Positions 15,644 through 35,742 of a DNA stretch of 48,445 bases are shown piece after piece. Numbering within the stretch: the first letter of the stretch is position 1; every line of letters begins with the position of its first letter. The notes beneath the pieces were generated by a model, which did not search any database, was not told where the DNA came from, and saw nothing but the letters and a program-made list of their open reading frames with translations. The position numbers were made by a program, and so were the translations under genes. Origin of the DNA: an uncultured Nitrososphaerota archaeon (GTDB lineage Archaea; Korarchaeota; Korarchaeia; Korarchaeales; Korarchaeaceae); NCBI GenBank assembly GCA_964618805.1, contig CAZUBM010000016.1, positions 1 through 48,445 on the forward strand. The letters are read 5' to 3'.

Positions 15644-16540
15644 TTATCTGATGATACCGGCCTTTTTCAAAGCCTCCTCCACTTCTCTCATTTCCTCCTT
15701 TCCCAACGGTAGCGTTGGCCTTCTAGGATACCCAGCTGGCACTCCTTGAATGCTAACCGCATACTTAACTGCGGCAAGCTGGTTCAGCTTTCTAACAACT
15801 ATGCTATTCAGGAAGGAGATAGTTGCCTGTAACTTAGCAGCTATTTCGTAATTTCCAGCCTTGAACTCCTCATACAGGTCCCTACAAAGCTTAGGTGCGA
15901 AAATTGCAACTGCTATAATCGCCCCCTTACCTCCAAGCATCAGGGTTGATAGGAATGCGTCGGCAGATCCTGCAAGGACAGAGATCTTATCGCCAACAAG
16001 CCTAATTATCTCTGATACTAGAGCCACGCTTCCGCTGCTGTCCTTTATACCTATCACGTTATCGCATTCCTCAACTACCTGGTGCACGACCTTGGGATCA
16101 AGGGAGATGCCTGTGAACTTTGGCACGTTGTAAAGTATTAGTGGAAGGTCTACGGCTTCTGCTACAGTCTTATAGTGTTGATACATCTCCTCGTTTGAAT
16201 GTTTGAAGTAGAAGGGCGTTACAACGAGCGCTGCATCTGCACCCAGATCTTCAGCGTCCTTAGTCAATTGTATGGTCTCCCTAGTGCTTATACCTCCAGT
16301 TCCGGCTATGACAGGAACCCTACCGTTTACTTGATCTATTACTGTTTCGATGACCTTCTTCCTCTCATCTCTAGAAAGATATGGAGCCTCTCCGTTGCTT
16401 CCACAAGTTACTAAGCCAGAAACCCCTCCTTCTATCCAGAATTCCACGCACCTCCTTAACGCTTCAAGGTCTAGGTCCCCATTTTTCGTAAATGGAGTAA
16501 CATGAGGAGGAAATACGCCCTGCAAATCCTCTTTTCTCAC
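15644..16540 (-). CDS. DHDPS/NAL-family class I aldolase, HOGA (4-hydroxy-2-oxoglutarate aldolase)-like
   Basis: PPHVTPF, GSNGE (the HOGA-type motif; DapA has GTTGE), LYNVP and the Schiff-base Lys in GIKDSSG. GTG 16540 follows AGGTGA. Confidence 0.85.
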   Translation of the reverse strand: MRKEDLQGVFPPHVTPFTKNGDLDLEALRRCVEFWIEGGVSGLVTCGSNGEAPYLSRDERKKVIETVIDQVNGRVPVIAGTGGISTRETIQLTKDAEDLGADAALVVTPFYFKHSNEEMYQHYKTVAEAVDLPLILYNVPKFTGISLDPKVVHQVVEECDNVIGIKDSSGSVALVSEIIRLVGDKISVLAGSADAFLSTLMLGGKGAIIAVAIFAPKLCRDLYEEFKAGNYEIAAKLQATISFLNSIVVRKLNQLAAVKYAVSIQGVPAGYPRRPTLPLGKEEMREVEEALKKAGIIR

Positions 16541-16668
16541 AAAAATCACCTAAAAAAGGCTTTGTGTTCGTTCCTCCTGAATTAATTAAAATTTAATCGA
16601 CGATGGGAACAGGCTTTACGAATATCAAATTAATGCCTTGAAATTAAAAAGAAAGGGAGTTGGGAGGA

Positions 16669-17712
16669 TCAGTACCCGCCCATTATCAGGGCCATAATTG
16701 CTTTTTGAACGTGAAGCCTGTTCTCAGCCTCATCGAAGACGACACTGTGCGGACCATCAATAACGTCGTCTGTTACTTCCATCCCCCTGTCAGCAGGCAA
16801 GCAGTGCATGTAGATGACGTTGCTGCTTGCCCTATCAAGCTTTTCCTGATCGCAAATCCAGTCCTTGTACTTGTTCATAAGCTCGATCATCCCCTTCTCG
16901 TCGACAGTTGGGACGTTTGGAGGCATAAACTTCAGGGACCCCCAAGACTTGGGATAGACAACATCTGCCCCTTCGAAAGCCTCTTCCATGTTATAGCTTA
17001 TCTCAAATGTCCCTCCAAACTCATCAGCGTTCTTCTTAGCTTGCTCTACTATCTTTGGATCTAGCTCCAGCCCCTTGGGATGTGCTAACACCACTTCGCC
17101 TCCAAACCTGGTGAAGGCGAGTATAGCACTCTGAGGAACGGCAACCGGCTTTATTCCACCGCTGTAGGCCCAGCTCATGACTATCTTCTTTCCTTCAAGC
17201 CTTCCATGCTTCTCCAGTATCGTCATAACGTCTGCCATGGCTTGGCACGGGTGATATATGTCGTCCTCCATGTTTATCAGCGGTATGTCTGCCCAATAAG
17301 CAAATTCCCTTATTATCTGATTTCCCTTTCCGTATATCCAGTTAACTGCTTCTCCATATATCCTTATAGCAATTGCATGCCCATATCTGCTTAATACCCT
17401 TGCAACGTCGCATATCCTCTCAGTCTTGTAAGGGATTTCCTCCCCTGCCAGAGCTGGCCTATAGACCGCTGTTGGAGATAGATATATGCCTTGCCCTCCT
17501 AGCTGAAAGATGCCCGTCTGAAAGCTGTTTCTTGTCCTAAGCGATGGATTGTAAAAGAGCATGTAGAGGGTCTTGCCTTCTAGTAGCCTGTGAGGTGCAC
17601 CCTTCCTTTGCTTTTCCTTAAGCTCGAATGCTAGCTTAAGGACTTGCTCAAGCTCCTCCCTGCTCCATTCTTGGGTTGATATGAAATCCCTCCCTCTCAA
17701 ACTAAGGGTCAT
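16669..17712 (-). CDS. ygeW: YgeW-like (knotted) carbamoyltransferase
   Basis: SLRT, HPCQAMAD and HCLP are carbamoyltransferase motifs. MSWAYS..KPVAVPQS..TRFG.EVVLAHP.G and MEEAF..ADVVYPKSW are YgeW-specific. It lacks the SMG ornithine motif of ArgF. Confidence 0.85.
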   Translation of the reverse strand: MTLSLRGRDFISTQEWSREELEQVLKLAFELKEKQRKGAPHRLLEGKTLYMLFYNPSLRTRNSFQTGIFQLGGQGIYLSPTAVYRPALAGEEIPYKTERICDVARVLSRYGHAIAIRIYGEAVNWIYGKGNQIIREFAYWADIPLINMEDDIYHPCQAMADVMTILEKHGRLEGKKIVMSWAYSGGIKPVAVPQSAILAFTRFGGEVVLAHPKGLELDPKIVEQAKKNADEFGGTFEISYNMEEAFEGADVVYPKSWGSLKFMPPNVPTVDEKGMIELMNKYKDWICDQEKLDRASSNVIYMHCLPADRGMEVTDDVIDGPHSVVFDEAENRLHVQKAIMALIMGGY

Positions 17713-17840
17713 CCAAATACACCCGTTACTTTTCACTTGTACCTTTAATTTGAACTTTACGAAAGATTGTTAGGATCCATGGCAGAGGTAAATTGATGAA
17801 ATTGGCATAAAAATACGTGTTTTGACTTGACTATGAGAAG

Positions 17841-17873: not shown

Positions 17874-17887
17874 ATATCAAAGGCTTA

Positions 17888-17917
17888 AGGCTATTTTTTG
17901 TTAGGCTATTTTTTGTT
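17888..17917. repeat. 2 x 15-bp tandem duplication AGGCTATTTTTTGTT
   Basis: 17888-17902 is identical to 17903-17917. Confidence 0.9.
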
Positions 17918-17963
17918 AGAAAATTATATATTAAAATATATCATTTGGTTTACTTTGGTACAG

Positions 17964-18725
17964 ATGAAGCTAGTGGATGAGCACTCCTTTAAGGTCCTTT
18001 CCAGAGTCGATGAACTCGGAACCTCAAGATTCAGCGATTTGATGAAGGAGATAAGAAATCCAAGAACTCTTAGTAGGAGGCTTAAGGAACTGACGTCGAT
18101 GGGATTGCTTTCCCGTTCAAATGAAGGATATAGGCTAACAGCCAAGGGAAGAAGGGTCCTTAAGCTAATGAAAAACCTTCTAATGGAGCTGTCAAGAAGA
18201 GATCTTGTTAAGAATCTTGATAGAATTCCCCACAGGATGTATTCCTCGCTTTTAAGAAGGTATTGCGAGATACTTAGGGAAAAATTTGGGGAGAGGCTTA
18301 TTGGAATTCTCCTTTTTGGATCCATTGCAAGAGGAGACTGGAAAAAGGACAGTGACATAGATCTCCTCCTTGTCATAAGGGGATGGAAGGACAAAAAGGT
18401 TTGGGAAAGGTTAAGGGAGCTATCGATAGCAAAGGAGATTTTAAGAGAAAGCAGGGAGTTTCATGAGGCGCTATCTAAGGGCTACTTCCCTTCCATTCAG
18501 CACTATGCTCTTGATCCCGAAGAAGTACAAATGTTTCATAGCATATATCCTGATGTAGCAGCTGATGGGATAATTCTGTACGATGAAGAAGGCTTCATGG
18601 ATAGGCTCGTATCCTCTATAAGGGAGAAGTTGAAGAGAAATGGTGCTTTAAGGATCTCTACACCTGATGGAAGGTACTATTGGATTCTGAAAGATGTCAG
18701 GGCTGGGGAGGTCTTTGAGCTTTGA
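17964..18725 (+). CDS. Winged-HTH (HxlR/ArsR-like) fused to an MNT nucleotidyltransferase
   Basis: N-terminal RFSDL...NPRTLSRRLKEL...YRLTAKG and C-terminal LFGSIARGDWKKDSDIDLL. I moved the start to ATG 17964, downstream of the TATA-like box. Confidence 0.88.
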   Translation: MKLVDEHSFKVLSRVDELGTSRFSDLMKEIRNPRTLSRRLKELTSMGLLSRSNEGYRLTAKGRRVLKLMKNLLMELSRRDLVKNLDRIPHRMYSSLLRRYCEILREKFGERLIGILLFGSIARGDWKKDSDIDLLLVIRGWKDKKVWERLRELSIAKEILRESREFHEALSKGYFPSIQHYALDPEEVQMFHSIYPDVAADGIILYDEEGFMDRLVSSIREKLKRNGALRISTPDGRYYWILKDVRAGEVFEL

Positions 18726-19153
18726 CTACGAACTTAGATCTAGCTAGAAAGGGAATAAGGAGGGCTTCCAGATGGCTTCAGGGTGCAAAGAGGGCTCTTG
18801 AGGACAAAAGATGGGATGATGTCGTCTACTGTTCCCAAATGGCAGTCGAGCAGTCCTCAAAGGCTATCCTTATTCTATTTGGAATAGATTACCCTAAAGA
18901 ACACGATATAAGCGATGTTTTCATTAGGCTCTCATCAAGAGAAGATATACCGCATTGGTTCAGAGAAAAAGTTCGCAATATGTGCTCAATAATATCAGAA
19001 CTTGCAGAACTAAGAGGATTGGCTGCTTATGGATATGAAATGGGTGTTGATGAAGATTACTTCACAGAATATGCCCCGGATGCCTATAATTTGGCAGTTG
19101 ATCACTATAATGCATGTAAAAGGCTTATTATGGAGTTATATGGAGAGAACTAA
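18722..19153 (+). CDS. HEPN domain protein (PF05168 type)
   Basis: SQMAVEQSSKAIL...PKEHDIS motif and a 4-bp overlap with the MNT gene. Confidence 0.88.
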   Translation: MTTNLDLARKGIRRASRWLQGAKRALEDKRWDDVVYCSQMAVEQSSKAILILFGIDYPKEHDISDVFIRLSSREDIPHWFREKVRNMCSIISELAELRGLAAYGYEMGVDEDYFTEYAPDAYNLAVDHYNACKRLIMELYGEN

Positions 19154-19221: not shown

Positions 19222-20496
19222 TTAGGTCTTATGGGACTCCTCTTCATATAATCTTTCAACGCTTTCCCTCGCCCTTGCTACAACTAATTTGCCCTCAGAC
19301 GTCCTGAAGATTATTGGAGGCTTCGTCTTACAGTTGAAAGGAAGGTTAAAGACGTTAGTATAGGCTCCAACCATCTCAAAAACAACGAGATCTCCCACTT
19401 CAAGGGCTGGCAGCCTTATTCCCTTTCCTTTTCCCAGAGGGGGGAGCAATACGTCGAAGGAGTCGCATAGGTTTCCAGCTAACTTAACCTCTGTCTTAAA
19501 CGAGAGACTTTTACGCCTTTTTAGGACTCTCACAGGGTACATTTGCTTCAAAAGCACGGCATCAAGCAGCAAATTGTAACCTGCATCGAGTATAGCTAGC
19601 TGCACATTCCCAGCCCTTTTTATGTTTACGACAGATGTTATAAGCAACCCTGCGCTTGCCATCAGAAACCTGCCGCTCTCTACTATTAGATCAAGCTTGA
19701 TTCCTTCCCTATTAGCCCAGTTATTTATTTTTTCCGTTATAAGAGAGGAGAAACGCTCGATTGGAGGGACTTCTAAGAAGTACTTGACTGGATAGCCTCC
19801 ACCTACATCTATAACCCTAATGTCAAGTCCCAAATCCCTTCTTGCTGAGGATAAAAACTCAAGGACCATATCCAAAGCAGAGGAAAACCAGATTGGATCT
19901 AGAACTTGACTTCCCAGGTGAAAGTGAACGCCTATAGGATCTATGAAGGAGCTTTCTTTAGCTTTTTTCAACAGCCAACTTGCAGAATCCTCTGAGGAGT
20001 TATTTAGAGTGACACCAAACTTGCTCCACTTTCCTGAAGCTGGTATCGTTGCCTCAACCTCTAAGTCAGGATTTATCCTTATCAAAACATCTTGCTTAGC
20101 CCCTTTATCCCTCAACACGTTAATTAGCCTAAAAAGACCTGTTTTTGAGCCCAGGGATATGAGCTGAACTCCAGATGAGATGGCAAACCTAAACTCGTCT
20201 TCTGTCTCTGAAACGCTTGAATATACAACATTTGACGCGCTTATACCCGTTTTCTTTAGGAAAAATAGTTCTTCCTTTGAAGCTATGTCGAAAAAAGTTC
20301 CCTTGGAGGCAAAGGTTCTTAGGACAAGCGGGTTGAAGTTGGCTTTAACTGAGTAGGCTATCTTAACGGCACCATCAAAACCAGAAAAGGCATTTCTAAG
20401 TTTGTTGAGGTTTTCAAGCATAATTTTCTCATCTATAAGGTAGAAGGGCGTTCTAAACTCCTCAGCAGCTGAAAAGATAAGGTTCTCATCTATCAA
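19222..20496 (-). CDS. Fold-type III PLP-dependent decarboxylase (LysA/ODC family), substrate uncertain
   Basis: YSVKAN (PLP Lys), SKFG, HFHLGSQ, DVGGG, ESGR, GNLCDSFD and GAY motifs. The start is uncertain (20496, 20511 or 20529). Confidence 0.85.
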   Translation of the reverse strand: MIDENLIFSAAEEFRTPFYLIDEKIMLENLNKLRNAFSGFDGAVKIAYSVKANFNPLVLRTFASKGTFFDIASKEELFFLKKTGISASNVVYSSVSETEDEFRFAISSGVQLISLGSKTGLFRLINVLRDKGAKQDVLIRINPDLEVEATIPASGKWSKFGVTLNNSSEDSASWLLKKAKESSFIDPIGVHFHLGSQVLDPIWFSSALDMVLEFLSSARRDLGLDIRVIDVGGGYPVKYFLEVPPIERFSSLITEKINNWANREGIKLDLIVESGRFLMASAGLLITSVVNIKRAGNVQLAILDAGYNLLLDAVLLKQMYPVRVLKRRKSLSFKTEVKLAGNLCDSFDVLLPPLGKGKGIRLPALEVGDLVVFEMVGAYTNVFNLPFNCKTKPPIIFRTSEGKLVVARARESVERLYEEESHKT

Positions 20497-20528
20497 GCAG
20501 ATTACCCTCATCAAAAGATAAAGGAGCA

Positions 20529-21851
20529 TTAAAGCCTTTCCCAAAGGGCTTTAGCTAGTTCTTTTGCCTTTTCAAAGATCTCATCTTCGTCCACCGTTAA
20601 CAGTTCCCTGTCCTTCATCAAGATCTTCCCATCAACGACGACAGTCCTAACTTGAGATGAATCCATTCCAAATATGAAGTGCCATGGAAAGTTTCCATCA
20701 TGCATGGGCGTGTATGGAACATAATCTAGAACTATGAGGTCTGCATATGCTCCTTTAACCAGCTTTCCTATGGGCTTCGGATAGAACTTGGCTAAGAGCT
20801 CCCTGTTATTCTTGAAAAGCATTTCAAGAACCTTTTCTGCCCCCATCACCCTTGGATCTGAGGTGTGGAGTTTGTGAAGCACGAACGTCACCTTTGCCTC
20901 CCTAAACATGTCCATCGTGAAGCCATCAGTTCCTAGTGCAGGCTTTATTCCCAATTCCAACATTCTAACTACTGGTGCAACACCAACTGCGTTGTTCATG
21001 TTAGACTCTGGATTGTGGATCACGTTAGTTTTTGTTTCCTTCAAAATCCTCATCTCTCGCTCGTTAACGTGGACACAGTGAGCTGCTATCGTCTTTGGTC
21101 CCAAAATGCCGTGATCCCATAGCCTTTCAACAACCCTCTTCCCTGACTTCGAAAGGGAATCGAAGACATCCTCTACCCCCTCAGCAGCGTGGATGTGAAA
21201 ACCTGTATCAAGTCCTTTTGCAGCTTCAACGCAAGCTTCAAGCGTTTCATCCGATAGAGTTAGTTGAGCATGTAGCCCGAAGCTTCCAGTTATGAACTCG
21301 TCCCCTTTGTGCTTCTCTATGAAATTAACGTTCTCATGAATGCCTTCTTTGGCTTTATCCAACCCATCTCTATCTGAGACCTCGTAAGCAATGTTTGCTC
21401 TAACTCCTACTTCCCTATACGCCTTCTCAAGCGTTTCTAAGCTTCCTCTTATGGAGTAGGGGCTTGCATGATGGTCCATCATGAACGTTGTCCCGTGCTT
21501 AATCGCTTCAATTGCTGTAACAAGGCCGCTGTAATATACATCTTCTAAAGTCAGCCTCTTGTCCAGGCGCCACCAAATTCTCTCCAAAATCTCCCCAAAT
21601 CTTGTTGGAGGCTCAACTTTTAGGGGCATTCCCCTTGCAAAGGCTCCATACGCGTGGCAGTGGGCGCATATCAGACCTGGCATCACGACGGACCTTGGAT
21701 AATCGAGGACCTCTTCCCTAGGATTTTCCAGCAATATCCTTTCTTTTTCTCCAACATCTCTTATTACAGAGCCCTCTATGAGGATAGCTCCATCTTTTAT
21801 CAATCCAATGCCATCGTCAAAGGTTGCCACCCACTTACCAGTGATTATCAA
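20529..21851 (-). CDS. ssnA: SsnA-family metal-dependent amidohydrolase
   Basis: MPGLICAHCHAY, WWRLD..L..EDVYYSGL...EAIK.G.T..MDHHASP, HNPESNMNNAVG and LGTDG follow the E. coli SsnA pattern closely. Confidence 0.92.
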   Translation of the reverse strand: MIITGKWVATFDDGIGLIKDGAILIEGSVIRDVGEKERILLENPREEVLDYPRSVVMPGLICAHCHAYGAFARGMPLKVEPPTRFGEILERIWWRLDKRLTLEDVYYSGLVTAIEAIKHGTTFMMDHHASPYSIRGSLETLEKAYREVGVRANIAYEVSDRDGLDKAKEGIHENVNFIEKHKGDEFITGSFGLHAQLTLSDETLEACVEAAKGLDTGFHIHAAEGVEDVFDSLSKSGKRVVERLWDHGILGPKTIAAHCVHVNEREMRILKETKTNVIHNPESNMNNAVGVAPVVRMLELGIKPALGTDGFTMDMFREAKVTFVLHKLHTSDPRVMGAEKVLEMLFKNNRELLAKFYPKPIGKLVKGAYADLIVLDYVPYTPMHDGNFPWHFIFGMDSSQVRTVVVDGKILMKDRELLTVDEDEIFEKAKELAKALWERL

Positions 21852-22102: not shown

Positions 22103-23665
22103 ATGTCAGAAGCTCATGGGAAAACAGCGCTTGGAGAAGAGAGGGAAATAGAGCCGATAGTTGAAATGAGAGGAATAGTGAAGACTTTCCCTGGGGTAGT
22201 GGCCAATGACCACATAAACTTTGAGGTTAGAGCTGGGGAGATCCACGCACTCCTTGGGGAGAACGGAGCTGGGAAGACCACGCTTATGAACATATTATAC
22301 GGCATTTACCAACCCAATGAAGGGGAGATCTACATAAGGGGGAAAAGAGTTGAGATAAGGAGCCCAAGAGATGCGATGCACCTTGGAATAGGGATGGTGC
22401 ACCAACACTTCATGCTCATAGAGAAACATACGGTAGTAGAGAACATTGCCCTAGGCTTCGCAACGAAGTTTCTCTTCCCAACTAAGGAAATTTCTAGAAA
22501 AATCAGGGAGTTCTCCGAGAAATATGGGCTTACAGTCGATCCAAATGCGTACATCTGGCAGCTCTCAGCTGGAGAGCAGCAAAGGGTTGAGATAATAAAG
22601 GCACTGTATAGAGGAGCTGATATCCTGATCTTAGATGAACCTACTTCAGTTCTCACTCCAAAAGAGATTGATGAGCTATTTTCAATACTTAAGAGGATGA
22701 AAGAAGAGGGAAAGGCCATAATTTTCATAACTCACAAGCTAGATGAGGTATTCGCAATAAGCGACAGGGTTACCGTGCTAAGAAGGGGTAAAGTCATTGG
22801 AAAGCTTAAGACAGCTGAGACAAACAAGAAGGAGCTTGCAAGGCTCATGGTAGGGAGAGAAGTTCTCTTCAGATTGGAAAGAGAGGCTGTAAAGAAAGGA
22901 AAGACTGTTTTGGAGGTTATCGACCTTTATGCACTTAACGATAAAGGTCTGCCCGCACTTAAGGGCGTCTCTTTTACCATAGCCGAGGGAGAAATACTTG
23001 GTCTGGCCGGAGTAGCTGGAAATGGGCAGAAAGAACTTGTAGAGGTTCTAACAGGCTTAAGGAAGGCTGAAAAGGGGAAGGTGCTGATAAGGGGCGTAGA
23101 CGTTACGAATGCATCCCCAAGAAGGATAGCTGAGTTAGGAGTTGCTCACATCCCAGAAGAGAGGCTGAAGCACGGTCTTGTGCCTAACATGAGCGTAGCT
23201 GAGAACCTGATACTAAAGCAGTATTATAAGCAGCCTTACTGCGACAAGTTCTTCATAGACAGGAAAAAGGTCCTTGAGAACGCAAATAAGTTGATTGAAG
23301 AATTCAATATAATGACTCCAAGCCCAATAACGCCAGCAAAGTTGCTATCTGGTGGAAACATTCAGAGACTGATCCTTGCTAGGGAGCTTGCAGGGAGCCC
23401 TGATGTGATAATTGCTGCCCATCCAACGTACGGTCTTGATGTAGGTGCAACTGAGTACATCAGGAAGATTCTTTTGAGGGAAAGGAAGAGAGGTTCTGCA
23501 ATCCTCCTAGTGTCTGAGGATCTAGAGGAGATCATGGCATTAAGCGATAGGATAGCAGTAATGTTTGAAGGGGAAATTATGGGCATCCTCCCAGCAGAAA
23601 AGGCAAGTTTGGAGGACATAGGGCTGATGATGGCAGGGGCTAAGAGGATGGGGGTGGTAGCATGA
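22103..23665 (+). CDS. ABC transporter ATP-binding protein (CUT2/nucleoside type, tandem ATPase domains)
   Basis: GENGAGKT, LSAGEQQ, LILDEPT and a second domain with LSGGNIQ. Confidence 0.95.
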   Translation: MSEAHGKTALGEEREIEPIVEMRGIVKTFPGVVANDHINFEVRAGEIHALLGENGAGKTTLMNILYGIYQPNEGEIYIRGKRVEIRSPRDAMHLGIGMVHQHFMLIEKHTVVENIALGFATKFLFPTKEISRKIREFSEKYGLTVDPNAYIWQLSAGEQQRVEIIKALYRGADILILDEPTSVLTPKEIDELFSILKRMKEEGKAIIFITHKLDEVFAISDRVTVLRRGKVIGKLKTAETNKKELARLMVGREVLFRLEREAVKKGKTVLEVIDLYALNDKGLPALKGVSFTIAEGEILGLAGVAGNGQKELVEVLTGLRKAEKGKVLIRGVDVTNASPRRIAELGVAHIPEERLKHGLVPNMSVAENLILKQYYKQPYCDKFFIDRKKVLENANKLIEEFNIMTPSPITPAKLLSGGNIQRLILARELAGSPDVIIAAHPTYGLDVGATEYIRKILLRERKRGSAILLVSEDLEEIMALSDRIAVMFEGEIMGILPAEKASLEDIGLMMAGAKRMGVVA

Positions 23666-24735: not shown

Positions 24736-24739
24736 TATC

Positions 24740-26988: not shown

Positions 26989-27103
26989 AATTCCCTTCCA
27001 GCTCTCGTCCTTATTTGAAACTGTATGTTTGTTAAGGAGATACAGTTTTGTATTTCATCGATTTTGATAAAACCTTTAAGTGAACCGCAGCAAGATCAAG
27101 TCA

Positions 27104-27601: not shown

Positions 27602-29506
27602 GTGACCAGGTATAAGGGATATGCTGGAAAGTACCTGAGGGTTGATCTAACCTCAGGGAAGATAAAGGTAGAGGACCTAGAGGATTCTCTTTGTGAGAAT
27701 TACGTTGGAGGACTTGGTTTTGCGACCAGGATATTGTGGGATGAGGTTAATGAGAGGACCGATCCCCTAGGACCGGAAAACAGGATCGTATTCTCCACTG
27801 GTCCAGTAACTGGAACCCTATTTCCAGCTGCTGGAAGGTATCAGGTTAACTCTAAGTCCCCTCTCACAGGCATATGGGGACATGCTAATTCAGGGGGATC
27901 CTTCGGACCTGAGCTTAAGTATGCAGGCTATGACATGATAATAATAAGCGGAAGGAGCGATAAGCCGGTATACTTGTGGATAGACGATGATTACGTTGAG
28001 CTAAAGGATGCATCTCACCTTTGGGGAAAGACAACCCACGAGACTACAGATGCTATTAGGGAGGAGCTTGAAGATGAAACATATAAGGTCGCATGCATAG
28101 GGCCAGCAGGAGAGAACCTAGTGAGGTTTGCATGCATAATAAACGACTACGGAGATGCTGCAGGAAGGACAGGAATGGGAGCAGTAATGGGGAGCAAGAG
28201 GCTAAAGGCAATAGCTGTTAGGGGGAGCAAGGAGATCCAAGTTCATGATCCAGATGCCTTCCTCGAAGTGGTTGATGAAGCATACAGGAAGCTCTTGGTT
28301 GAATGGGGATATCATCTCTCCGTTACCTTGACGAGGTATGGAACCCCCAACTTAGTTGAAGCCATAAACTCCATCGGCAGGATGCCGGTAAAGAACCACT
28401 GGACTGGGTATTGGGAGAAGGCTGATAAAATAGGAGGGGTTAGGATAAGAAGGGAGTATAGGTCTAAGCAAGGAAGCTGCTTTGGATGTCTTGTTCAATG
28501 CAAGTACATGGTAAGAGTCCCTTCAGGGAAGTACGCTGGAGCTTATAAGGGTCCTGAGTATGAGGCCATAGTCTCTCTAGGTTCCTGCTGCTTAGTGGAT
28601 GATCTAGAAGCGATATTTGAGGCAAATCATCTTTGTGATCTTTATGGGATGGATTCGATATCGATGGGTATGACAATAGCATGGGCAATGGAGTGCTACG
28701 AAAAGGGGTTGATAACAGAGGAAGATACCGGAGGAATCCCAATAAAATGGGGAGATGGGGAACTTGTAGTAGATCTAGTTAAGAAAACCGCATTTAGGGA
28801 TGGATTTGGAAATATCCTGGCTGAAGGAACACGTAGGGCTTCTGAAATCATAGGAAGAGGGACTGAAAAATATGCAATGCAGGTAAAGGGCCTTGAGATC
28901 TCGGCTCAAGATGGAAGAGCCCATCAATCATCTGGCCTTACCCATGCAACAGCAGCCAGAGGAGCAGATCACCTTACCTCCCTCTCCTGCTTAGAAGAGA
29001 GAGGATATGAGAAGGTTGCAGCTTCTAGATATGGAGAAGATAAGGTTCAGCACTTGATAGATCCTCTATCAACAAAGTATAAGGGAATTCTGGTCAAGGA
29101 CCTCGAGGACCTTTATGCGATTGGAAACTCCCTTATAATATGTTGGTACGAAGTAGGATGGCCTCCTGTTTTCTACTTCGATGACATGGCAAGGCTTATA
29201 CATACGCTAACGGGAATGGAGCAATACAAGGAAGTTCGAACTCTCAGATTAGCTGCTGAGAGGATATGCACCCTGCGCAGGATGTTTAACGTAAGAGAGG
29301 GGATAAGGAGGAAGGACGACACCTTGCCAGAGAGATTTACGAAGGAGCCAATGCCATCAGGACCAGCAAAGGGCAACGTATGTCGTTTAGACGAGATGCT
29401 TGATGAATACTACGAGGCAAGAGGATGCGACAAGAGAACAGGAATTCCTACCGATGAAACTTTGAGAAGACTCGGATTGGGCGATTTAGCCGGGAAGTAT
29501 AGGTAG
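27602..29506 (+). CDS. aor: Tungsten-dependent aldehyde:ferredoxin oxidoreductase family enzyme (module 1)
   Basis: KSPLTG, GRTGMGAVMGSK.LKAI, CxxCxxxC, GPEYE, D..GMD, RGADHL and DDTLPERF motifs. Confidence 0.93.
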   Translation: MTRYKGYAGKYLRVDLTSGKIKVEDLEDSLCENYVGGLGFATRILWDEVNERTDPLGPENRIVFSTGPVTGTLFPAAGRYQVNSKSPLTGIWGHANSGGSFGPELKYAGYDMIIISGRSDKPVYLWIDDDYVELKDASHLWGKTTHETTDAIREELEDETYKVACIGPAGENLVRFACIINDYGDAAGRTGMGAVMGSKRLKAIAVRGSKEIQVHDPDAFLEVVDEAYRKLLVEWGYHLSVTLTRYGTPNLVEAINSIGRMPVKNHWTGYWEKADKIGGVRIRREYRSKQGSCFGCLVQCKYMVRVPSGKYAGAYKGPEYEAIVSLGSCCLVDDLEAIFEANHLCDLYGMDSISMGMTIAWAMECYEKGLITEEDTGGIPIKWGDGELVVDLVKKTAFRDGFGNILAEGTRRASEIIGRGTEKYAMQVKGLEISAQDGRAHQSSGLTHATAARGADHLTSLSCLEERGYEKVAASRYGEDKVQHLIDPLSTKYKGILVKDLEDLYAIGNSLIICWYEVGWPPVFYFDDMARLIHTLTGMEQYKEVRTLRLAAERICTLRRMFNVREGIRRKDDTLPERFTKEPMPSGPAKGNVCRLDEMLDEYYEARGCDKRTGIPTDETLRRLGLGDLAGKYR

Positions 29507-29585: not shown

Positions 29586-30392
29586 TCAAGAAATGAGCTT
29601 AGTAAATAGGAAGCAAGGGGCCCAAAGGGCTACTGGTATCGTAACTCCAGGAAAGGGAGATCTCCTTCTGAGAAGCATGTTCAAAGTTATCAGGATGCCA
29701 GAGTTCAGGGAAGTTAGAGGCAGCAAAGCTAAGGGAAAACCTACAGTTCTAATGGAAAATGATGTTGCAAGGGAATAAATTAGAAGATCTCCTATACCTA
29801 ATCCAATTTCTTGCTGAGTTACGAAGAAAGGGCTCAGAACCTCTATTTTAAGTTCAAGGGTGTCGAGTATCTTTCTTAGAGGCCCTTTAAACACTGAATA
29901 GGCATCATAAGCGGCCAAAAAGATGAGCAAAAACCCTATAAAGGCCTCAGGGAAAGTAGACACTATTATATGTGAAATTGATGCAGAAAGAAACACCTTG
30001 ACAAAATTTCCAACTACGCCTGGCCTTTTCCACAATGAGACAAGGATTATGGAGACAAGAAAGGAGATCAAGCTGTTGTATTTTAGCCAATAAAGAACTT
30101 GATTTAGGGATAACATTGAACTTGCGAAGAGAGATGCTAGAAAGATCGCTTGAAGGAACTTTATTAGATTCTTCCTCAATAAATAGAGGATTAAATAGGC
30201 ACCAGCTAGCACAGAGGCGACATAAATTAAAGATAGGCCTGCAGACTCTTTAGTTGTGAGCTGTAATATGGGAGAGGGTTTTGTGACCAGCACTAAGATA
30301 GCTCCATATGCCTGAGCTAGAAATGGCCATATTAAGATCAATTTTCCTTTACTTCGAATGTCATCAGTCATTTGGTCCTCTTCTGTCCCCAT
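29586..30392 (-). CDS. Presenilin/SPP-like GxGD intramembrane aspartyl protease (A22)
   Basis: YDAYSVFKGPLR and GLGIGDLLIYS catalytic motifs in TM helices. PGV occupies the PAL position. Confidence 0.85.
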   Translation of the reverse strand: MGTEEDQMTDDIRSKGKLILIWPFLAQAYGAILVLVTKPSPILQLTTKESAGLSLIYVASVLAGAYLILYLLRKNLIKFLQAIFLASLFASSMLSLNQVLYWLKYNSLISFLVSIILVSLWKRPGVVGNFVKVFLSASISHIIVSTFPEAFIGFLLIFLAAYDAYSVFKGPLRKILDTLELKIEVLSPFFVTQQEIGLGIGDLLIYSLATSFSIRTVGFPLALLPLTSLNSGILITLNMLLRRRSPFPGVTIPVALWAPCFLFTKLIS

Positions 30393-30762: not shown

Positions 30763-31965
30763 ATGACCTTTCCGGATCTATCTGTTGAGGTTGCTGGAAT
30801 AAAATTCAGAAACCCCGTTCTTACCGCAGCAGGTCCTCCAAGCAGAGATGGGGAGGCTCTAAAGGCAGCTGCAAGGGGAGGAGCTGGCGGGCTTGTAGCG
30901 AAGACCATTAGTGTGAAGCCAGCTAAGGTTCCAAGGCCCTGTATGATCGTCGTAGACAGAGGAAAGACTCAATTCTACGCAAGGCTGGTGCTTGAGAACA
31001 GGGTAGTCACGACGGCTACTAGCTACGTCATCATACCAAGAGGCATGTTAAACGCTGAACTTTGGTCCGATCTTCCATACGAAAGGTGGTTGGAGAGGGA
31101 ATACGCAATAGCAAAGGAAACAGGTCTTCCTCTCATAGCAAGCATAGGTTATACCGCTGAAGACCTGTCCTTCCTTGGCCCGAAGGTTGAGAAAGCTGGA
31201 GTTGATGGAATAGAGTTCTCCCTTCACTATGTGGGAGTTGACTACAGACCCATACTAGAGATAGCTAAGGCCTTAAGGGAGGCCGTTGATATCCCCATAT
31301 TTCCGAAGTTAAGCCCTCACATCATAAACCTTCAGGAATTTGCTAAAGAGCTTGAGAAGATTGGAGTTGATGGAATAGTAGCCGTTAACTCGTTAGGACC
31401 ATGCCTTTCCATAGATGTAGAGACTGGTAAGCCGCTATTAGGAGGGAAAGGGGGTTTTGGATGGCTCTCTGGACCTGCCATCAAGCCTTTAGGCATAAGG
31501 GTCGTTGCTGAGGTAGCAAAGGTCGTTAAAATCCCTGTTATAGGGGTAGGCGGGGTCATGAACGGCTTGGACGCAATAGAGTACTTCATGGCTGGAGCAT
31601 CGGCCGTACAAATTTGCACAGGTGCCATCTTAGAAGGACCTACCATATATGGCAGGGTTGCGAGGGAGATAGGAGAATGGCTGAAATCTCATGGATATGA
31701 TTCCGTTGAGGACATCAGAGGAATTGCCCTGAAGCATCTCCCAGAAGAGCCTCTCAGGTTCCACAGCGTTCCTCCAAAGGTTGATGAGAAGCTATGCAAA
31801 CTTTGCGGCCTTTGCGAGAAATCCTGCATATATAATGCTATAAAACTCCCTAAAGACACTAGTGGCATGAAAAGGCCTCCCGTAGTGGATACGGAGAAGT
31901 GTTACGGGTGTGGTACTTGTGTTTCGATATGCCCAACAAGGGCTTTGAGTTTTGAGGAGGTGTAA
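30763..31965 (+). CDS. PreA/dihydroorotate-dehydrogenase-family FMN enzyme with C-terminal 2x[4Fe-4S]; atypical active site
   Basis: NPV..AAGP, GLVAKT, PKLSP, AVNS, LSGPAIKP, IGVGG and GASAVQ motifs plus two CxxCxxCxxxC groups. EFSLHY replaces the usual ELNxSCP. Confidence 0.88.
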   Translation: MTFPDLSVEVAGIKFRNPVLTAAGPPSRDGEALKAAARGGAGGLVAKTISVKPAKVPRPCMIVVDRGKTQFYARLVLENRVVTTATSYVIIPRGMLNAELWSDLPYERWLEREYAIAKETGLPLIASIGYTAEDLSFLGPKVEKAGVDGIEFSLHYVGVDYRPILEIAKALREAVDIPIFPKLSPHIINLQEFAKELEKIGVDGIVAVNSLGPCLSIDVETGKPLLGGKGGFGWLSGPAIKPLGIRVVAEVAKVVKIPVIGVGGVMNGLDAIEYFMAGASAVQICTGAILEGPTIYGRVAREIGEWLKSHGYDSVEDIRGIALKHLPEEPLRFHSVPPKVDEKLCKLCGLCEKSCIYNAIKLPKDTSGMKRPPVVDTEKCYGCGTCVSICPTRALSFEEV

Positions 31966-31972
31966 TGTGAGA

Positions 31973-32461
31973 ATGGGAAAGTTAATCCTTGTGAACCCTG
32001 ATTTGTGTACTGGTTGTAGACTGTGCGAATTGGCTTGTTCTCTTCATCATTACAAAGAGATTGCTCCAAGCAGGTCGAGAATCAATGTAATTAAGTGGGA
32101 TGCAAGGGCGATAGATGTTCCAGTCCTATGTTTGCAATGTTACAACCCTGTCTGCGCGACAGCTTGTCCTACAAAAGCAATTTATAGGGACAACGAGCAA
32201 GATCTAGTGGTAATTGACAAAGATAAGTGCATAGAGTGCAAATCATGCATGTATGCGTGTCCTATTGGTGGAATAACCGTGGATCCTGTCGGAGGGGAGG
32301 TCATAAAGTGCGATCTATGCGGAGGAGATCCTCAGTGCGTTGCTTTTTGTCCAACTGGAGCCCTAGAGTTCGTTGAAGCTGGCAGAATGGCTTTGCGCAA
32401 GAGGAGGGTTGCTGCAACCAAGATGTCTAAGGTAATAGATGTCCTGATGGGAGGAAGGTAG
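31973..32461 (+). CDS. 4x[4Fe-4S] electron-transfer subunit of AOR module 2
   Basis: Paralog of 27104-27601 with four Cys clusters; preceded by GGAGGTG. Confidence 0.92.
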   Translation: MGKLILVNPDLCTGCRLCELACSLHHYKEIAPSRSRINVIKWDARAIDVPVLCLQCYNPVCATACPTKAIYRDNEQDLVVIDKDKCIECKSCMYACPIGGITVDPVGGEVIKCDLCGGDPQCVAFCPTGALEFVEAGRMALRKRRVAATKMSKVIDVLMGGR

Positions 32462-32464
32462 CCC

Positions 32465-34387
32465 TTGGCCTTTCCTCTAAAGGGATACGTAGGGAAGATG
32501 CTTTGGGTTGACTTAACACAGAAGAAGGTGAGAGATGTCCCACTTCCGAAGAGATATGTATTGGATTACATAGGAGGAACTGCTCTAGGAGGCCGCATAT
32601 TGTGGGATCACGTTGGCCCTCAGACCGATCCTCTATCACCTGAAAATCTGCTGCTTGTAGTAACTGGACCGGTAACAGGGACCATATGGCACACAAGTGG
32701 AAGAGGAGCCCTCGTGTCTAAGTCCCCTCTAACTGGGATATGGGCCGAGTCTCACTTCGGCGGGCATTTTGCCCCAGAACTCAAGTATGCAGGCTATGAT
32801 ATGATAATAATAAGTGGAAGGAGCGATAAGCCGGTATATCTTAAGGTTGAGGATGGGTGTGCTGAGATAAAGAGCGCAGAGAAGATGTGGGGCAAAGGCG
32901 TCTATAAAACGACTGAGTTAGTTAGAGAGGAGTTTGGAGATGAGGATGCAAAAATCCTCGCCATAGGGCAGGCAGGGGAGAACTTAGTTAGATATGCTGC
33001 AGTCATGTCGGCACCTTATGATGCTGCGGGAAGGACAGGAATGGGAGCAGTAATGGGGAGCAAGAGGCTGAAGGCAATTGCTGTCAGAGGTTTTGGATCC
33101 GTTAAAGTGGCAGACTCAGATGGGTTGATGGAATTCGCTAAGGAGGCAAAGAGGAGGATACTTGAAAGTGAGCACGCCATGCAGCAGAGGAAATATGGCA
33201 CCCCGATGCTCGTTGAGGTAAAACAGCAGATAGGAGAGTTACCCACAAAGAACCACTGGAACGGAGTTTTCGACAAGTACGAAGAGATAGGCTCAGTTAG
33301 GCTTAGAGAAAGGTACTGGAAGGCAACAAAGGCTTGTAGTGCATGCTTCATAGCTTGCAAGAAGTTCTTCGGAGTTGAATCTGGCAGATTTGCAGGCATC
33401 ATTGCTGGTCATTTGGAATACGAGACTTTATACGCGTTTGGATCTAACCTCATGAATGGGGATGTCGAGTCCATAATCTACATAGATAGGCTATGCGATG
33501 ATTACGGCCTGGACACAATTTCAGCAGGGGCATCCATAGCCTTCTTGATGGAGTGCTATGAGAAGGGATTAGTTTCTAAAGAGCAAGTGGATGGCTTAGA
33601 CCTTAGCTGGGGTAACGTCGATGCTATTATCGAGCTGATCCATAAGATTGTAAGAAGAGAGGGCATTGGAAACCTTTTGGCTGAAGGAGTTAAGAGAGCG
33701 GCAGTTAGAATAGGGAAAGGAGCTGAGAAGTACGCAATTCATGTTAAGGGTCTTGAAGTCTCCGGGCAAGATGGCAGGGCACATAGGTCTGCAGGACTTA
33801 CTCATGCAACTGCTGCAAGAGGCGCTGATCATCTTAGATCCCTCGTAACAGTAGACCAGCTAGGATATGAGGATGTTGCTGCGGAGAGATTTGGTCCAGA
33901 TAAACTTCCTGGAATCTGCGATGGACAGAGCGAGGAGTACAAGGCTCTTGCTGTAAAAGTAATTGAGGACGTCTACGCGGTGAGGGATGCAATGATAGTT
34001 TGCTGGTACTCGGTTTCTTGGCCTCCAGTCTTCTGGATAGATGATTTCGCTAAGGTGCTAAAGCTCGTAACAGGTTACGAGGGGTTTGCTGATCCAAGGA
34101 AGCTAATGATCATGGGGGAGAGAATGGTAAATCTGAAGAGGGCCTTCAACGTCAGGGAGGGAATAAGGAGGAAGGACGACACCCTGCCAGAGAGATTTAC
34201 GAAGGAGCCAATGCCATCAGGACCAGCAAAGGGTCAGGTAGTAGATCTGGAGAGAATGCTTAACGAGTACTACCAGCTAAGGAACTGGGATCTAGAGACA
34301 GGAATCCCAAAGAGGGAGACCTTCGAGAGGCTTGATATGTTGGACATAGCTGAGGAGCTGGAGAGGTCCGGAGTTAAGCTCCCCTGA
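32465..34387 (+). CDS. aor: Tungsten-dependent aldehyde:ferredoxin oxidoreductase family enzyme (module 2)
   Basis: Same AOR motifs as module 1, except GHLEYE replaces GPEYE. Confidence 0.93.
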   Translation: MAFPLKGYVGKMLWVDLTQKKVRDVPLPKRYVLDYIGGTALGGRILWDHVGPQTDPLSPENLLLVVTGPVTGTIWHTSGRGALVSKSPLTGIWAESHFGGHFAPELKYAGYDMIIISGRSDKPVYLKVEDGCAEIKSAEKMWGKGVYKTTELVREEFGDEDAKILAIGQAGENLVRYAAVMSAPYDAAGRTGMGAVMGSKRLKAIAVRGFGSVKVADSDGLMEFAKEAKRRILESEHAMQQRKYGTPMLVEVKQQIGELPTKNHWNGVFDKYEEIGSVRLRERYWKATKACSACFIACKKFFGVESGRFAGIIAGHLEYETLYAFGSNLMNGDVESIIYIDRLCDDYGLDTISAGASIAFLMECYEKGLVSKEQVDGLDLSWGNVDAIIELIHKIVRREGIGNLLAEGVKRAAVRIGKGAEKYAIHVKGLEVSGQDGRAHRSAGLTHATAARGADHLRSLVTVDQLGYEDVAAERFGPDKLPGICDGQSEEYKALAVKVIEDVYAVRDAMIVCWYSVSWPPVFWIDDFAKVLKLVTGYEGFADPRKLMIMGERMVNLKRAFNVREGIRRKDDTLPERFTKEPMPSGPAKGQVVDLERMLNEYYQLRNWDLETGIPKRETFERLDMLDIAEELERSGVKLP

Positions 34388-34395
34388 AGGGTGTT

Positions 34396-35742
34396 TTGAT
34401 GGCAGCTGACCTTGTGGTGAAGGGAGGCAAGCTTGTAACCCCAGAAGGGATCATAGAGGCTGGAATTGCGATAAAAGACGGGAAAATAATGAATATAGCG
34501 AAGGAGACAGGGCTTCCTGAAGCTCAAAGGCTCATAAGGGTCGATGGGAGACTGGTGATGCCAGGAGTAATAGATGCCCATTCCCACATCCACGATCCCG
34601 ATTACACGTACAGGGAGGATTTTGAATCTGGGAGCAAGGCAGCCGCTGCCGGAGGGGTTACCATGCTCATAGACATGCCACTAGTCCTTACAGTTCTCTC
34701 CGACATGATAGAGAGGAAGAAAGAGGAGGGAGAAAGGCTTTCCGTCGTTGATTTCAGCTTCCACGCCGGGATGATGAGGCCTGAGTACATTGGCGAGATC
34801 CCTAAGGTTGTCGCCTTGGGGGTCAAGTCATTCAAGCTCTTCACGACACAACCCTTCAAGGTAGGCTGGAAAGGGGTTAAGGAGATCGTTCAGGCCGTTA
34901 CTAAGTCTCGGGGGATAACGGTAGTTCATGCTGAAGATGATTCCATAGTATCTGAGTGGGTGAAGAAGGTTAGGGACGAAGAGGGAAGGAAGGATGTGCT
35001 TGCACACTTCGATTCCCGTCCCGCTGAGGCAGAGGGAGAAGCCATTAGGAGGCTCATACACATAAGCGAGGAAACCGGAGGGCACATACACATAGCACAC
35101 ATGACCACAACCGTAGGAACAGTTTTGGTCAGGGACGCGAAGGAAAGGGGTATAAGCATAACAGCTGAGACTTGCCCTCAGTACTTGGTATTCACCAGAG
35201 ATGATGCTGAGAAACAGGGACCTTATTTGAAGATGACCCCTCCCCTCAGAACGAGGGACGACGTGATTTCACTTTGGAGGGGGCTTGCTGATGGAACGAT
35301 AGACATGGTGGTAACTGATCACGCTCCCGGAACTAGGGAGGAGAAGGAGGTTGGTTGGGAGGACATTTGGAAGGCTTGGGGAGGCATACCAGGGGTCGAA
35401 ACCCTTCTTCCCATCATGTTGAGTGAAGGAGTGAATAAGGGCAGGATAACTCCCATGAGATTGGTGGAGGCGATGTGCCGGAGACCTGCGGAGGTCTTCG
35501 GTCTCTATCCGAGGAAGGGAGCGTTGAAGGAGGGGTCTGATGGAGATCTAGTCATAGTGGACATGAAAAGGGAAGTTACAATTAGGGCAGAGAACCTTCA
35601 CTACAAGGTCGGATGGACACCCTATGAAGGCATGAAGGTAGTAGGTTTCCCCGAGATAACAGTTATAAGGGGAGAGGTTGTGGCCGAAGGCGGAGCAATC
35701 CTCAAAAAACCTGGATATGGGAAATTTGTCGAGATGACCTGA
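34396..35742 (+). CDS. Cyclic amidohydrolase (hydantoinase/dihydropyrimidinase/allantoinase family)
   Basis: DAHSH, AAAAGGVT..DMP, carbamylated Lys in SFKLF, VHAE, HIAH, ETCPQYL and TDHAP motifs. Confidence 0.92.
   Translation: MMAADLVVKGGKLVTPEGIIEAGIAIKDGKIMNIAKETGLPEAQRLIRVDGRLVMPGVIDAHSHIHDPDYTYREDFESGSKAAAAGGVTMLIDMPLVLTVLSDMIERKKEEGERLSVVDFSFHAGMMRPEYIGEIPKVVALGVKSFKLFTTQPFKVGWKGVKEIVQAVTKSRGITVVHAEDDSIVSEWVKKVRDEEGRKDVLAHFDSRPAEAEGEAIRRLIHISEETGGHIHIAHMTTTVGTVLVRDAKERGISITAETCPQYLVFTRDDAEKQGPYLKMTPPLRTRDDVISLWRGLADGTIDMVVTDHAPGTREEKEVGWEDIWKAWGGIPGVETLLPIMLSEGVNKGRITPMRLVEAMCRRPAEVFGLYPRKGALKEGSDGDLVIVDMKREVTIRAENLHYKVGWTPYEGMKVVGFPEITVIRGEVVAEGGAILKKPGYGKFVEMT

Follow-up and report, generated by a model that had tools for sequence, protein, structure and literature searches.

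Predicted tungsten AOR-family enzymes in the position of xanthine dehydrogenases in a candidate purine-catabolic gene cluster of a Korarchaeia-like archaeon

We analyzed a 48,445-nucleotide stretch of DNA, hereafter the window, that spans positions 1-48445 of contig C16 in a Korarchaeia-like metagenome-assembled genome (G000; 2.18 Mb, 62 contigs, estimated completeness 93.7%). As judged from its gene families, the region from 15.6 to 35.7 kb is a nucleobase-catabolic cluster, in which two predicted tungstopterin enzymes of the aldehyde oxidoreductase (AOR) family, AOR1 and AOR2, are encoded beside homologs of ring-reducing and ring-opening enzymes. The substitution of these AORs for xanthine dehydrogenase (XDH) and 2,8-dioxopurine dehydrogenase (DOPDH) is supported by gene context. 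We give about even chances to the full reading, that the cluster degrades imported nucleobases or nucleosides, most likely purines, and that the AORs perform the pterin-enzyme steps of a variant of the reductive urate pathway. A preliminary description of this DNA had proposed a pathway of this type, an interpretation that is now partly supported. Its observations are also partly confirmed: all open reading frames of the cluster (15644-35742) lie where it had placed them and most of its family labels hold, but its YgeW-type label for the carbamoyltransferase (CTase) fails.

In bacteria, XDH takes hypoxanthine and xanthine to urate, which XdhD (DOPDH) then dehydroxylates, yielding 2,8-dioxopurine (Li et al. 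2025, PMC12507026; Liu et al., bioRxiv 10.1101/2025.04.24.650524). According to the same two reports, 2,8-dioxopurine is reduced by YgfK or, in C. difficile, by the ferredoxin-type PydA homolog UacX, the rings are opened by SsnA and HyuA, and the last steps involve YgeW with carbamate kinase, YgeY, and YgeX. YgfK or UacX acts together with SsnA to reduce and open 2,8-dioxopurine, HyuA opens the products, and UacX is named as a PF01180 enzyme without an FAD domain (PMC12507026).

Family assignments in the window were made with Pfam and NCBIfam models; scores are given in bits, followed where relevant by the curated cut-off of the model. The gene at 20529-21851 (minus strand) encodes, by its sequence, a true SsnA, the enzyme that serves as a marker for reductive urate (2,8-dioxopurine) catabolism. 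The protein passes both SsnA models (NF005540, 573.2 vs 444; TIGR03314, 537.8 vs 455.5), upholding its earlier label, is 35% identical to E. coli SsnA, and groups with it in a 14-row clade with a support of 99 (FastTree, with E. coli GuaD as outgroup). The gene at 30763-31965 (plus strand) encodes a 400-aa protein made of a DHO_dh domain (PF01180) and two C-terminal Fer4 motifs for two [4Fe-4S] clusters, with no other domain and hence neither an FAD nor an NAD(P)H domain. This PreA/PydA/UacX architecture agrees with the earlier description as a PreA/DHOD-like FMN and iron-sulfur (FeS) enzyme; the protein scores 187 vs 335 with the PreA model NF006183 and aligns to residues 531-819 of pig dihydropyrimidine dehydrogenase (DPD). 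As an FMN and FeS enzyme of PF01180 that is devoid of an FAD/NAD(P)H domain and encoded beside SsnA it fits the definition of UacX, an assignment based on architecture and gene context. This UacX-like protein, whose homologs are 70-86% identical in Korarchaeia and 53-58% in Thorarchaeota, would catalyze a ferredoxin- or FeS-fed ring reduction.

The other pathway proteins were identified with varying precision. Diverging from ssnA, the genes at 22103-26955 (plus strand) encode an ATP-binding cassette (ABC) importer with a fused ATPase (PF00005), two permeases (PF02653 twice), and a Bmp/PnrA-type binding protein (PF02608), as had been recognized before. The amidohydrolase encoded at 34396-35742 (plus strand; PF01979), earlier labeled a cyclic amidohydrolase, is hydantoinase/allantoinase-like and stays just below the cut-offs of the allantoinase (TIGR03178, 356.3 vs 357.85) and D-hydantoinase (TIGR02033, 346.5 vs 393.25) models. 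It is assignable to the cyclic amidohydrolase superfamily only; at 32% identity to E. coli HyuA, it may open a ring as HyuA does. The CTase at 16669-17736 (minus strand; PF00185, PF02729) resembles ornithine and N-acetylornithine carbamoyltransferases (OTC/AOTC) and passes the model of the latter (NF003384, 301.7 vs 288). The YgeW models NF005538 and TIGR03316 give 180.7 vs 453 and 169.9 vs 500, respectively, and identity to E. coli YgeW is 34%. This CTase is therefore not a YgeW ortholog; it would phosphorolyze a ureido intermediate to carbamoyl phosphate.

Both of the FeS-AOR modules described earlier proved to be pairs of a polyferredoxin subunit with Fer4 motifs and an AOR, all encoded on the plus strand: FeS1 (27080-27601) with AOR1 (27602-29506), and FeS2 (31952-32461) with AOR2 (32465-34387). 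Membership of the AOR/WOR family is clear from scores of 258-442 bits with the AFOR_C and AFOR_N domains (PF01314 and PF02730: 442 and 295 bits for AOR1, 426 and 258 bits for AOR2) and from the C-x2-C-x3-C motif and distal Cys located in AOR1. FeS1 has 16 conserved Cys, enough for four [4Fe-4S] clusters, in four motifs that are invariant in 10 sequences. The genes are tightly packed: the FeS1 stop abuts the AOR1 start, the UacX-like and FeS2 genes overlap by 14 bp, and gaps of 3 and 8 bp separate FeS2 from AOR2 and AOR2 from the amidohydrolase gene.

AFOR_C has 17 matches in the genome as a whole. Long open frames account for 14, and one match (C2:124833-126662) carries an in-frame TAG. Its canonical AOR, at C9:48456 (662 bits to P. 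furiosus AOR, 1aor), represented canonical AORs in our trees. The cluster AORs fall inside one clade that excludes it, comprising 100 of 122 rows in a FastTree phylogeny (support 97) and 47 of 60 rows in a quick IQ-TREE phylogeny (support 99). Within this clade, three old paralog groups are distinguishable, AOR1-, AOR2-, and AOR3-type, the AOR2-type clade with a support of 100. On the 122-row tree, linkage to a UacX-like gene requires 12 changes vs 40.8 in shuffles.

The clade also has a distinctive active site (residue numbering from PMC12096430). Cluster AORs keep the second-shell residues Thr243, Glu311, Tyr312, Glu313, and His448, and replace Tyr427 by Gln, Cys447 by Asp, and Tyr452 by Leu, Phe, or Ile; the signature of AOR1 is T-E-Y-E-Q-A-D-H-L, and AOR2 has the same Gln427/Asp447 combination. 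Both residues are found together in 93 of the 122 rows, including 63 of the 64 UacX-linked ones; taken singly, Gln427 occurs in 63/64 and Asp447 in 64/64 of the latter. Tyr427 positions the aldehyde, and in WOR4 and WOR5/ASOR an altered residue at this position goes along with the loss of activity or with a new one (PMC12096430). A sister FeS-AOR with the same signature was found in a Desulfurococcaceae locus (L036:7049-12835), in an apparent operon with genes for a class II aldolase and for the binding protein (NMT1/THI5-like, or NMT1/TauT-type), ATPase, and permease of an ABC importer, which points to another imported small-molecule substrate for the Gln427/Asp447 clade. The idea that Desulfurococcales sister AORs stand beside a KDG-aldolase-like protein of the dihydrodipicolinate synthase (DHDPS) family, which would favor glyceraldehyde oxidation, was dropped: none of the ten neighboring frames in L036 is DHDPS-like.

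Comparison with characterized enzymes sets these proteins apart. With AORs sensu stricto that have polyferredoxin subunits (P. furiosus 1AOR; A. aromaticum AorAB(C), 8C0Z; 9MQX), they share both Pfam AOR domains, the [4Fe-4S] Cys motif, the five second-shell residues listed above, and a four-cluster AorA-like subunit encoded just upstream of AOR1. They differ in the three substitutions, in their separate clade, in having a UacX-like FMN-FeS neighbor instead of an AorC-like FAD subunit, and in an operon context of ring-cleaving amidohydrolases. With Thr, Glu, and His present, Gln in place of Tyr427, and a position outside the canonical clade, neither AOR1 nor AOR2 is an AOR sensu stricto. WOR5/ASOR and BamB are precedents for new substrates in AOR-family enzymes with an altered second shell, and WOR5 also has a polyferredoxin subunit; however, both are distant in sequence from the window AORs. 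WOR5 has His for Tyr and lacks the Thr, whereas in BamB and YdhV a Cys serves as metal ligand and the set of second-shell residues kept by the window AORs is missing (PMC12096430). WOR5 and BamB score roughly 234-275 bits, with 246 and 234 bits between BamB (4z3w) and AOR1 and AOR2, respectively. Judged on this second shell, with Thr243, Glu313, and His448 retained, the window AORs are not of the BamB/YdhV type. The ring reduction by BamB that had been cited as an analogy is thus a poor one (the similarity amounts to ~240 bits), and we rejected a BamB-like ring reduction by the cluster AORs.

The cluster is conserved well outside the window. A phylum-level search yielded 43 genomes. The genomes compared with the source include G003 and G002 from its own genus, four from a second, sister genus, g2 (G005, G009, G012, and G015), and one designated Kor1 (G025). 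The order SsnA, ABC-BMP importer, FeS1-AOR1, UacX, FeS2-AOR2, and hydantoinase-like gene is kept in G003 and in all four g2 genomes, and CTase relatives with 80-91% identity lie near the cluster in G003, G012, and locus L029. In the g2 clusters, a third AOR directly follows the hydantoinase-like gene. The corresponding AOR3-type gene of the source genome, also of the Gln427/Asp447 clade, lies past the window end at C16:48681-50510 and is truncated by the contig end; it is separated from the window amidohydrolase gene by ~13 kb that encode an ATPase_2/DUF234 protein, a GxGYxYP protein, and unknowns, and its location in g2 suggests that this stretch is an insertion. G002 (90% complete) lacks SsnA, the UacX ortholog, and the AOR1 ortholog together. 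Apart from the XdhABC-type enzymes of g2 and Kor1 (see below), the phyletic pattern is coherent. In Kor1, UacX is followed by two AORs; the neighbors of its SsnA (DUF835 proteins, a phosphoribosyltransferase, and an outgroup-type AOR) are uninformative, and the CooS, CooC, HdrA-like, and MvhD genes that follow SsnA in g2 are unrelated to the cluster.

A scan seeded with AOR1, with one genome per species, kept 79 loci, of which 35 carry a UacX-like gene, 21 also a hydantoinase-like gene, and 23 at least two AORs; these loci were picked by AOR1 similarity and many are close relatives, such that the counts overstate independence. The nearest AOR lies at most 2.1 kb from the UacX-like gene in 34 of the 35 loci, and the 35th is a 3.3-kb fragment in which no full AOR is visible. 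AOR-UacX-hydantoinase modules recur in Thorarchaeota/'Promethearchaeota', Baldrarchaeota, Bathyarchaeia, Endomicrobia, and UBP18 bacteria, and Kor1 is also represented among the loci. The Baldrarchaeota module includes an SsnA that passes NF005540 (456 vs 444), and the amidohydrolase of the Thorarchaeota cluster, which also contains a PfkB gene, is deaminase-like and not an SsnA (217 vs 444). Genes for MvhD/FlpD and ferredoxin-domain proteins were noticed at L067:20066-21160 in Thorarchaeota and at L135:2004-2915 in G009; the former, ~730 bases after the second FeS-AOR pair, hints at a further electron-transfer partner. The conservation of the AOR clade beside ssnA and its partners, put forward earlier as a test, is thus observed, well beyond Korarchaeia, and the clustering of the window genes is far beyond chance. 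These comparisons of predicted genes establish a conserved catabolic cluster built around the ring-reducing and ring-opening enzymes of a reductive purine pathway. AORs of a specialized clade, together with their polyferredoxin subunits, belong integrally to this cluster and are inherited with it.

We also took the reverse approach and scanned metagenome contigs with the UacX-like protein. Eighty loci with 51-73% identity were kept, 59 of which have at least 2.5 kb of flanking sequence; their amidohydrolases and XDH-like genes were named by tblastn against window and E. coli proteins. Within the flanks examined, 38 of the 59 loci have an adjacent AOR, six an XDH-family enzyme, none both, and 15 neither. 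The exclusion of AOR and XDH yields a Fisher p of 0.0012, which is overstated because the rows are not independent and the six XDH rows represent about two lineages. At three of the XDH-type loci (L155-157), a CTase (57% identity) and an amidohydrolase are encoded together with UacX (59%) and an XdhD-like protein, which matches E. coli XdhD along its entire length (37% identity over 961 aa); genes for an FAD subunit, carbamate kinase, and another CTase are also present. The three others (L169, L178, and L182) encode XdhABC-like proteins, a CTase (56%), UacX (55%), and a second CTase. L169 also carries a BMP importer 49% identical to that of the window, L178 two amidohydrolases, one deaminase-like and one of the SsnA family, and L182 a single deaminase-like one. 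Whether a locus is of the AOR or of the XDH type, CTases 56-68% identical to the window CTase can adjoin UacX. The XDH-type loci therefore resemble the window cluster with the pterin enzyme swapped. In the UacX phylogeny, the XDH-linked rows occupy two positions, one of them inside a 99-row, mostly AOR-linked clade (support 99). As far as gene content can tell, the distribution of AOR and XDH beside UacX is a pattern of non-orthologous displacement. Four other loci (L179, L203, L206, and L211) carry a UacX variant with no AOR or XDH within 8 kb, in company with a hydantoinase-like protein, two SsnA-family proteins, a second UacX-like protein (31%), and a YgfT/GltD-like flavoprotein, and are possibly an NAD(P)H-fed version.

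The two pterin enzymes thus share a cluster position beside UacX, SsnA-family amidohydrolases, CTases, and BMP importers, in which they are mutually exclusive. They are unrelated in sequence and fold, however, the AORs being predicted bis-pterin tungsten and the XDH family (XDH, XdhD/DOPDH) mono-pterin molybdenum enzymes with a sulfido or seleno ligand, and the window AORs lack the FAD and 2Fe-2S subunits, YqeB, and YqeC. Aldehydes are oxidized by both families; this chemistry formally resembles the hydroxylation that the xanthine-oxidase family performs at ring C-H carbons adjacent to nitrogen.

The XDH molybdenum-cofactor domain PF02738 has no match in any of the five genomes of the window's genus, the source genome included (completeness 93.7, 71, 90, 75, and 78%), and was not found in the module-holding Baldrarchaeota, Thorarchaeota, Endomicrobia, and UBP18 genomes or in G014. 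Together with the mutual exclusion beside UacX, this speaks for the earlier proposal that the AORs replace XDH-family enzymes; the XdhABC-type enzymes of g2 and Kor1, described below, speak against it. The preliminary description had also stated that an XDH-family enzyme, YgeY, YgeX, and carbamate kinase were absent from the window, which holds. Genome-wide, the first and third were not found (the best YgeX score, 21.7 bits, is below the cut-off), but the two others are present. A YgeY-family hydrolase at C10:19967-21055 passes NF009555 (344 vs 321) and fails TIGR03526 (271 vs 321.5), and a carbamate kinase at C4:94161-95099 (428 vs 358) is 49% identical to E. coli YqeA. Their neighbors, a GTPase and V-ATPase I for the former, and a ferredoxin, a CCG/FAD-oxidase, and enolase for the latter, provide no pathway context.

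When compared with the bacterial urate cluster (E. coli xdhD-ygfM-ygfK-ssnA-hyuA-ygeW-ygeY-ygeX-yqeA; the UacX and UacY variant in C. difficile), the archaeal system has in common a true SsnA, a hydantoinase-like amidohydrolase, a CTase and a carbamate kinase, and a nearby purine/nucleoside importer; its reductase is of the UacX type known from C. difficile. Unlike it, the source genome has no detectable homolog of E. coli XdhA, XdhB, XdhC, XdhD, YgfM, YgfK, YgeX, YqeB, or YqeC, and two to three AOR-polyferredoxin modules are embedded in the cluster instead. Further differences are the AOTC/OTC-like CTase, the unlinked YgeY-like and carbamate kinase genes, the additional LysA-like and DapA-like genes, and the archaeal host.

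From these elements, we propose that the cluster encodes a modified form of the reductive urate (2,8-dioxopurine) pathway known from bacteria. The AOR paralogs would be pathway-specific tungsten enzymes standing where the molybdenum hydroxylases XDH and XdhD (DOPDH) stand in the sister clusters, and, linked to ferredoxin, would hydroxylate and/or dehydroxylate carbons of the purine ring; one example is the 6-dehydroxylation of urate to 2,8-dioxopurine. The conversion of the urate lactam at C6 to the C-H of 2,8-dioxopurine may, by our own analogy, be viewed formally as an acid- to aldehyde-level reduction, a reaction type that is called unique to AORs (PMC12096430). The polyferredoxin subunits would pass electrons between the tungsten sites, ferredoxin, and the UacX-like reductase. 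UacX and SsnA would reduce and open the pyrimidine ring, the hydantoinase-like enzyme the second ring, and the CTase with the carbamate kinase encoded on contig C4 would turn ureido groups into ATP.

Several observations weigh against this proposal. The closest structures in the PDB are ordinary aldehyde-oxidizing AORs (9mqx, 1aor, and 8c0z), with best scores of 509 (9mqx) and 473 bits (1aor) for AOR1 and 412 and 392 bits for AOR2, and aldehyde oxidation is fully possible, because the catalytic second-shell residues are all retained. The Gln427/Asp447 signature is not specific to UacX linkage, because UacX is absent within 6 kb from 30 of the 93 rows with this combination, the Desulfurococcaceae FeS-AOR among them, and the limited independence of the AOR1-seeded loci tempers their counts. 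The 15 UacX loci with neither AOR nor XDH nearby also count on this side, as does the occurrence of SsnA in G014 and G017, the former, the only one searched, without a UacX or AOR1 ortholog. The YgeY-like hydrolase and carbamate kinase are present elsewhere in the genome and so are not replaced, which weakens the earlier suggestion that the aldolase and decarboxylase may take over the YgeY/YgeX end steps. All four g2 genomes and Kor1 hold, besides the AOR cluster, two XdhABC-type enzymes and a YqeB-like gene elsewhere, and therefore the AORs are no simple XDH substitute in these organisms. One g2 locus (L133; G009:C4:50000-69999) encodes a binding protein, a hydantoinase-like protein, two XdhA/B/C-like sets, a distant CTase, and a YqeB-like protein, and is possibly a second heterocycle pathway in carriers of the AOR cluster. 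Lastly, the source genome has a paralogous module at C6:51573-59714 (L128), composed of UacX-like (32%), AOR (50%), FeS, hydantoinase-like (41%), AOR (42%), and SsnA-like (34%) genes. Its flanking genes encode DeoC, a zinc alcohol dehydrogenase (ADH), two PfkB kinases, and a metallophosphatase of 851 aa; DeoC, PfkB, and ADH make or use aldehydes. As a further instance of the linkage, the module also counts in favor of the proposal. This module looks like a second nucleoside/nucleobase catabolic island, and the genome has at least 10 SsnA/deaminase-type amidohydrolase paralogs.

The main alternative, a serious one to which we assign a smaller chance, is that ordinary aldehyde-oxidizing AORs serve in a nucleobase/nucleoside cluster, their electrons reaching the UacX-like reductase through the polyferredoxins in replacement of PreT or an NAD(P)H domain. 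Its candidate aldehyde sources, equally tentative, are the sugar moiety (acetaldehyde via DeoC, glycolaldehyde, or glyceraldehyde) and amino-acid fermentation. A UacX without its own FAD/NAD(P)H domain does need an electron donor. In addition to the structural kinship and the retained Thr243, Glu313, and His448, every characterized AOR clade without the Cys ligand oxidizes aldehydes (PMC12096430), the C6 module stands beside DeoC, PfkB kinases, and ADH, a PfkB gene lies inside the Thorarchaeota cluster, and the sister genus keeps XdhABC enzymes for ring hydroxylation. However, the core conserved across phyla contains no aldehyde-forming enzyme, and its non-AOR members (UacX-like, SsnA- or deaminase-like, and hydantoinase-like) come from ring-acting families. 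Two to three old, separately conserved AOR paralogs per cluster are hard to reconcile with one generic donor role, the genome already has a canonical AOR, and the aldehyde-positioning Tyr427 is replaced by Gln. The absence of AOR and XDH together from all 59 UacX loci would be expected if both did the same job and unexpected if the AOR merely fed electrons.

We regard as unlikely a second alternative, in which the substrate is another N-heterocycle (pyrimidines through a reductive PydA/PydB-like route, hydantoins, or allantoin-like compounds), SsnA is a Korarchaeal add-on, and the AORs act on a ring or ring-derived carbon. UacX-like proteins are indeed homologs of PydA and DPD, the window amidohydrolase scores equally as allantoinase, dihydroorotase, and dihydropyrimidinase, the Thorarchaeota amidohydrolase is of the deaminase type, the presence of a second, paralogous module in the genome hints at more than one class of substrate, and a Bmp importer does not tell base types apart. 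Yet an SsnA above the curated cut-off is encoded inside the cluster in the window, in g2, and in Baldrarchaeota, the sister loci of the XDH type resemble the bacterial urate cluster in their XdhD-like genes, carbamate kinase, and CTases, and the reductive pyrimidine route requires no pterin enzyme. That the AORs are neighbors merely by chance is very improbable: the expansion of the AOR family in this genome (17 AFOR_C matches, 14 in long frames) would make it conceivable, but it is already contradicted by a gene order that is conserved in two genera and recurs across phyla, by overlapping or abutting frames, and by the few changes in UacX linkage on the AOR tree.

The remaining genes around the cluster are less conserved. 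The DapA-like gene at 15644-16549 (minus strand) encodes a class I aldolase/lyase of the DHDPS family (PF00701, 291 bits); it had been called HOGA-like, of which the family stands, but the top model is dapA (TIGR00674, 244 vs 206) and not specifically HOGA. The LysA-like gene at 19222-20544 (minus strand), whose frame overlaps the end of ssnA by 16 bp, encodes a pyridoxal phosphate-dependent fold-type III decarboxylase (PF02784, PF00278), as labeled earlier, that stays under the lysA cut-off (TIGR01048, 266 vs 298). Both genes adjoin the SsnA cluster only in the genus of the window; in G003, the DapA-like copy (86% identical) lies beside the CTase gene and the LysA-like copy (64%) directly after ssnA. 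They probably do not serve lysine biosynthesis, because no DapB passes the cut-off in the genome (best score 34.5 vs 122). A toxin-antitoxin-like nucleotidyltransferase and HEPN pair (17898-19153, plus strand; PF01909, PF05168) is inserted between the CTase and LysA-like genes and is not a pathway member: neither protein has a tblastn match in G003, where the LysA-like and CTase matches are ~170 bases apart. Between AOR1 and the UacX-like gene, a frame at 29586-30392 (minus strand) encodes a 268-aa protein with no Pfam or NCBIfam match, which has a 51% identical homolog in G003 and no match at this position in the sister-genus loci, where AOR1 is directly followed by UacX, 6-15 bp apart. Farther upstream, the window contains genes for two large proteins (421 and 922 aa) of the beta-propeller type (PQQ/WD40-like), next to genes of no known family (2584-9109), all unrelated to the cluster, and then a PIN-domain gene, a BrxL-like Lon protease/ATPase (a BREX-type defense component), and a 403-aa protein of no known family (10979-14470).

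A literature search retrieved no report in which AOR-family enzymes are connected to SsnA or to the catabolism of purines or pyrimidines. In the available part of its text, the survey of SsnA neighborhoods covers bacteria only and describes an F420-type alternative reductase and no alternative to XdhD (PMC12507026). Tungsten, AOR, and xanthine go unmentioned in the main text of a Korarchaeota study (PMC12787533), whose supplementary section on purine metabolism might bear on novelty. The cluster can thus be considered a variant of a known urate pathway that is novel as such and, if our assignment of the AORs holds, would also reveal a new reaction class for their family.

We tentatively propose, as a generalization that may well prove too broad, that the members of the Gln427/Asp447 clade depend on tungsten, are linked to ferredoxin, and hydroxylate and dehydroxylate the purine ring. 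No purine hydroxylase would have been known before them outside the xanthine-oxidase family. They would act with two or three paralogs replacing XDH and 2,8-dioxopurine dehydrogenase, and would enable a molybdenum- and selenium-independent anaerobic purine fermentation across Korarchaeia, Asgard archaea (Thorarchaeota), Baldrarchaeota, Bathyarchaeia, and some deep-branching bacteria. Even if the AORs were aldehyde oxidizers, the conserved AOR-polyferredoxin-UacX unit would be a new solution for electron input into ring reduction, and the cluster would provide the first operon-based functional handle on a large uncharacterized AOR clade. If the proposal is true, tungsten AORs would be found to act on N-heterocycles as well as on aldehydes, and an ability to ferment nucleobases could be explained in many anaerobic archaea that have no XDH. 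Vent and sediment archaea, Asgard lineages among them, would then offer a counterpart, based on ferredoxin and with the metal exchanged, to the gut-bacterial pathway described in 2025.

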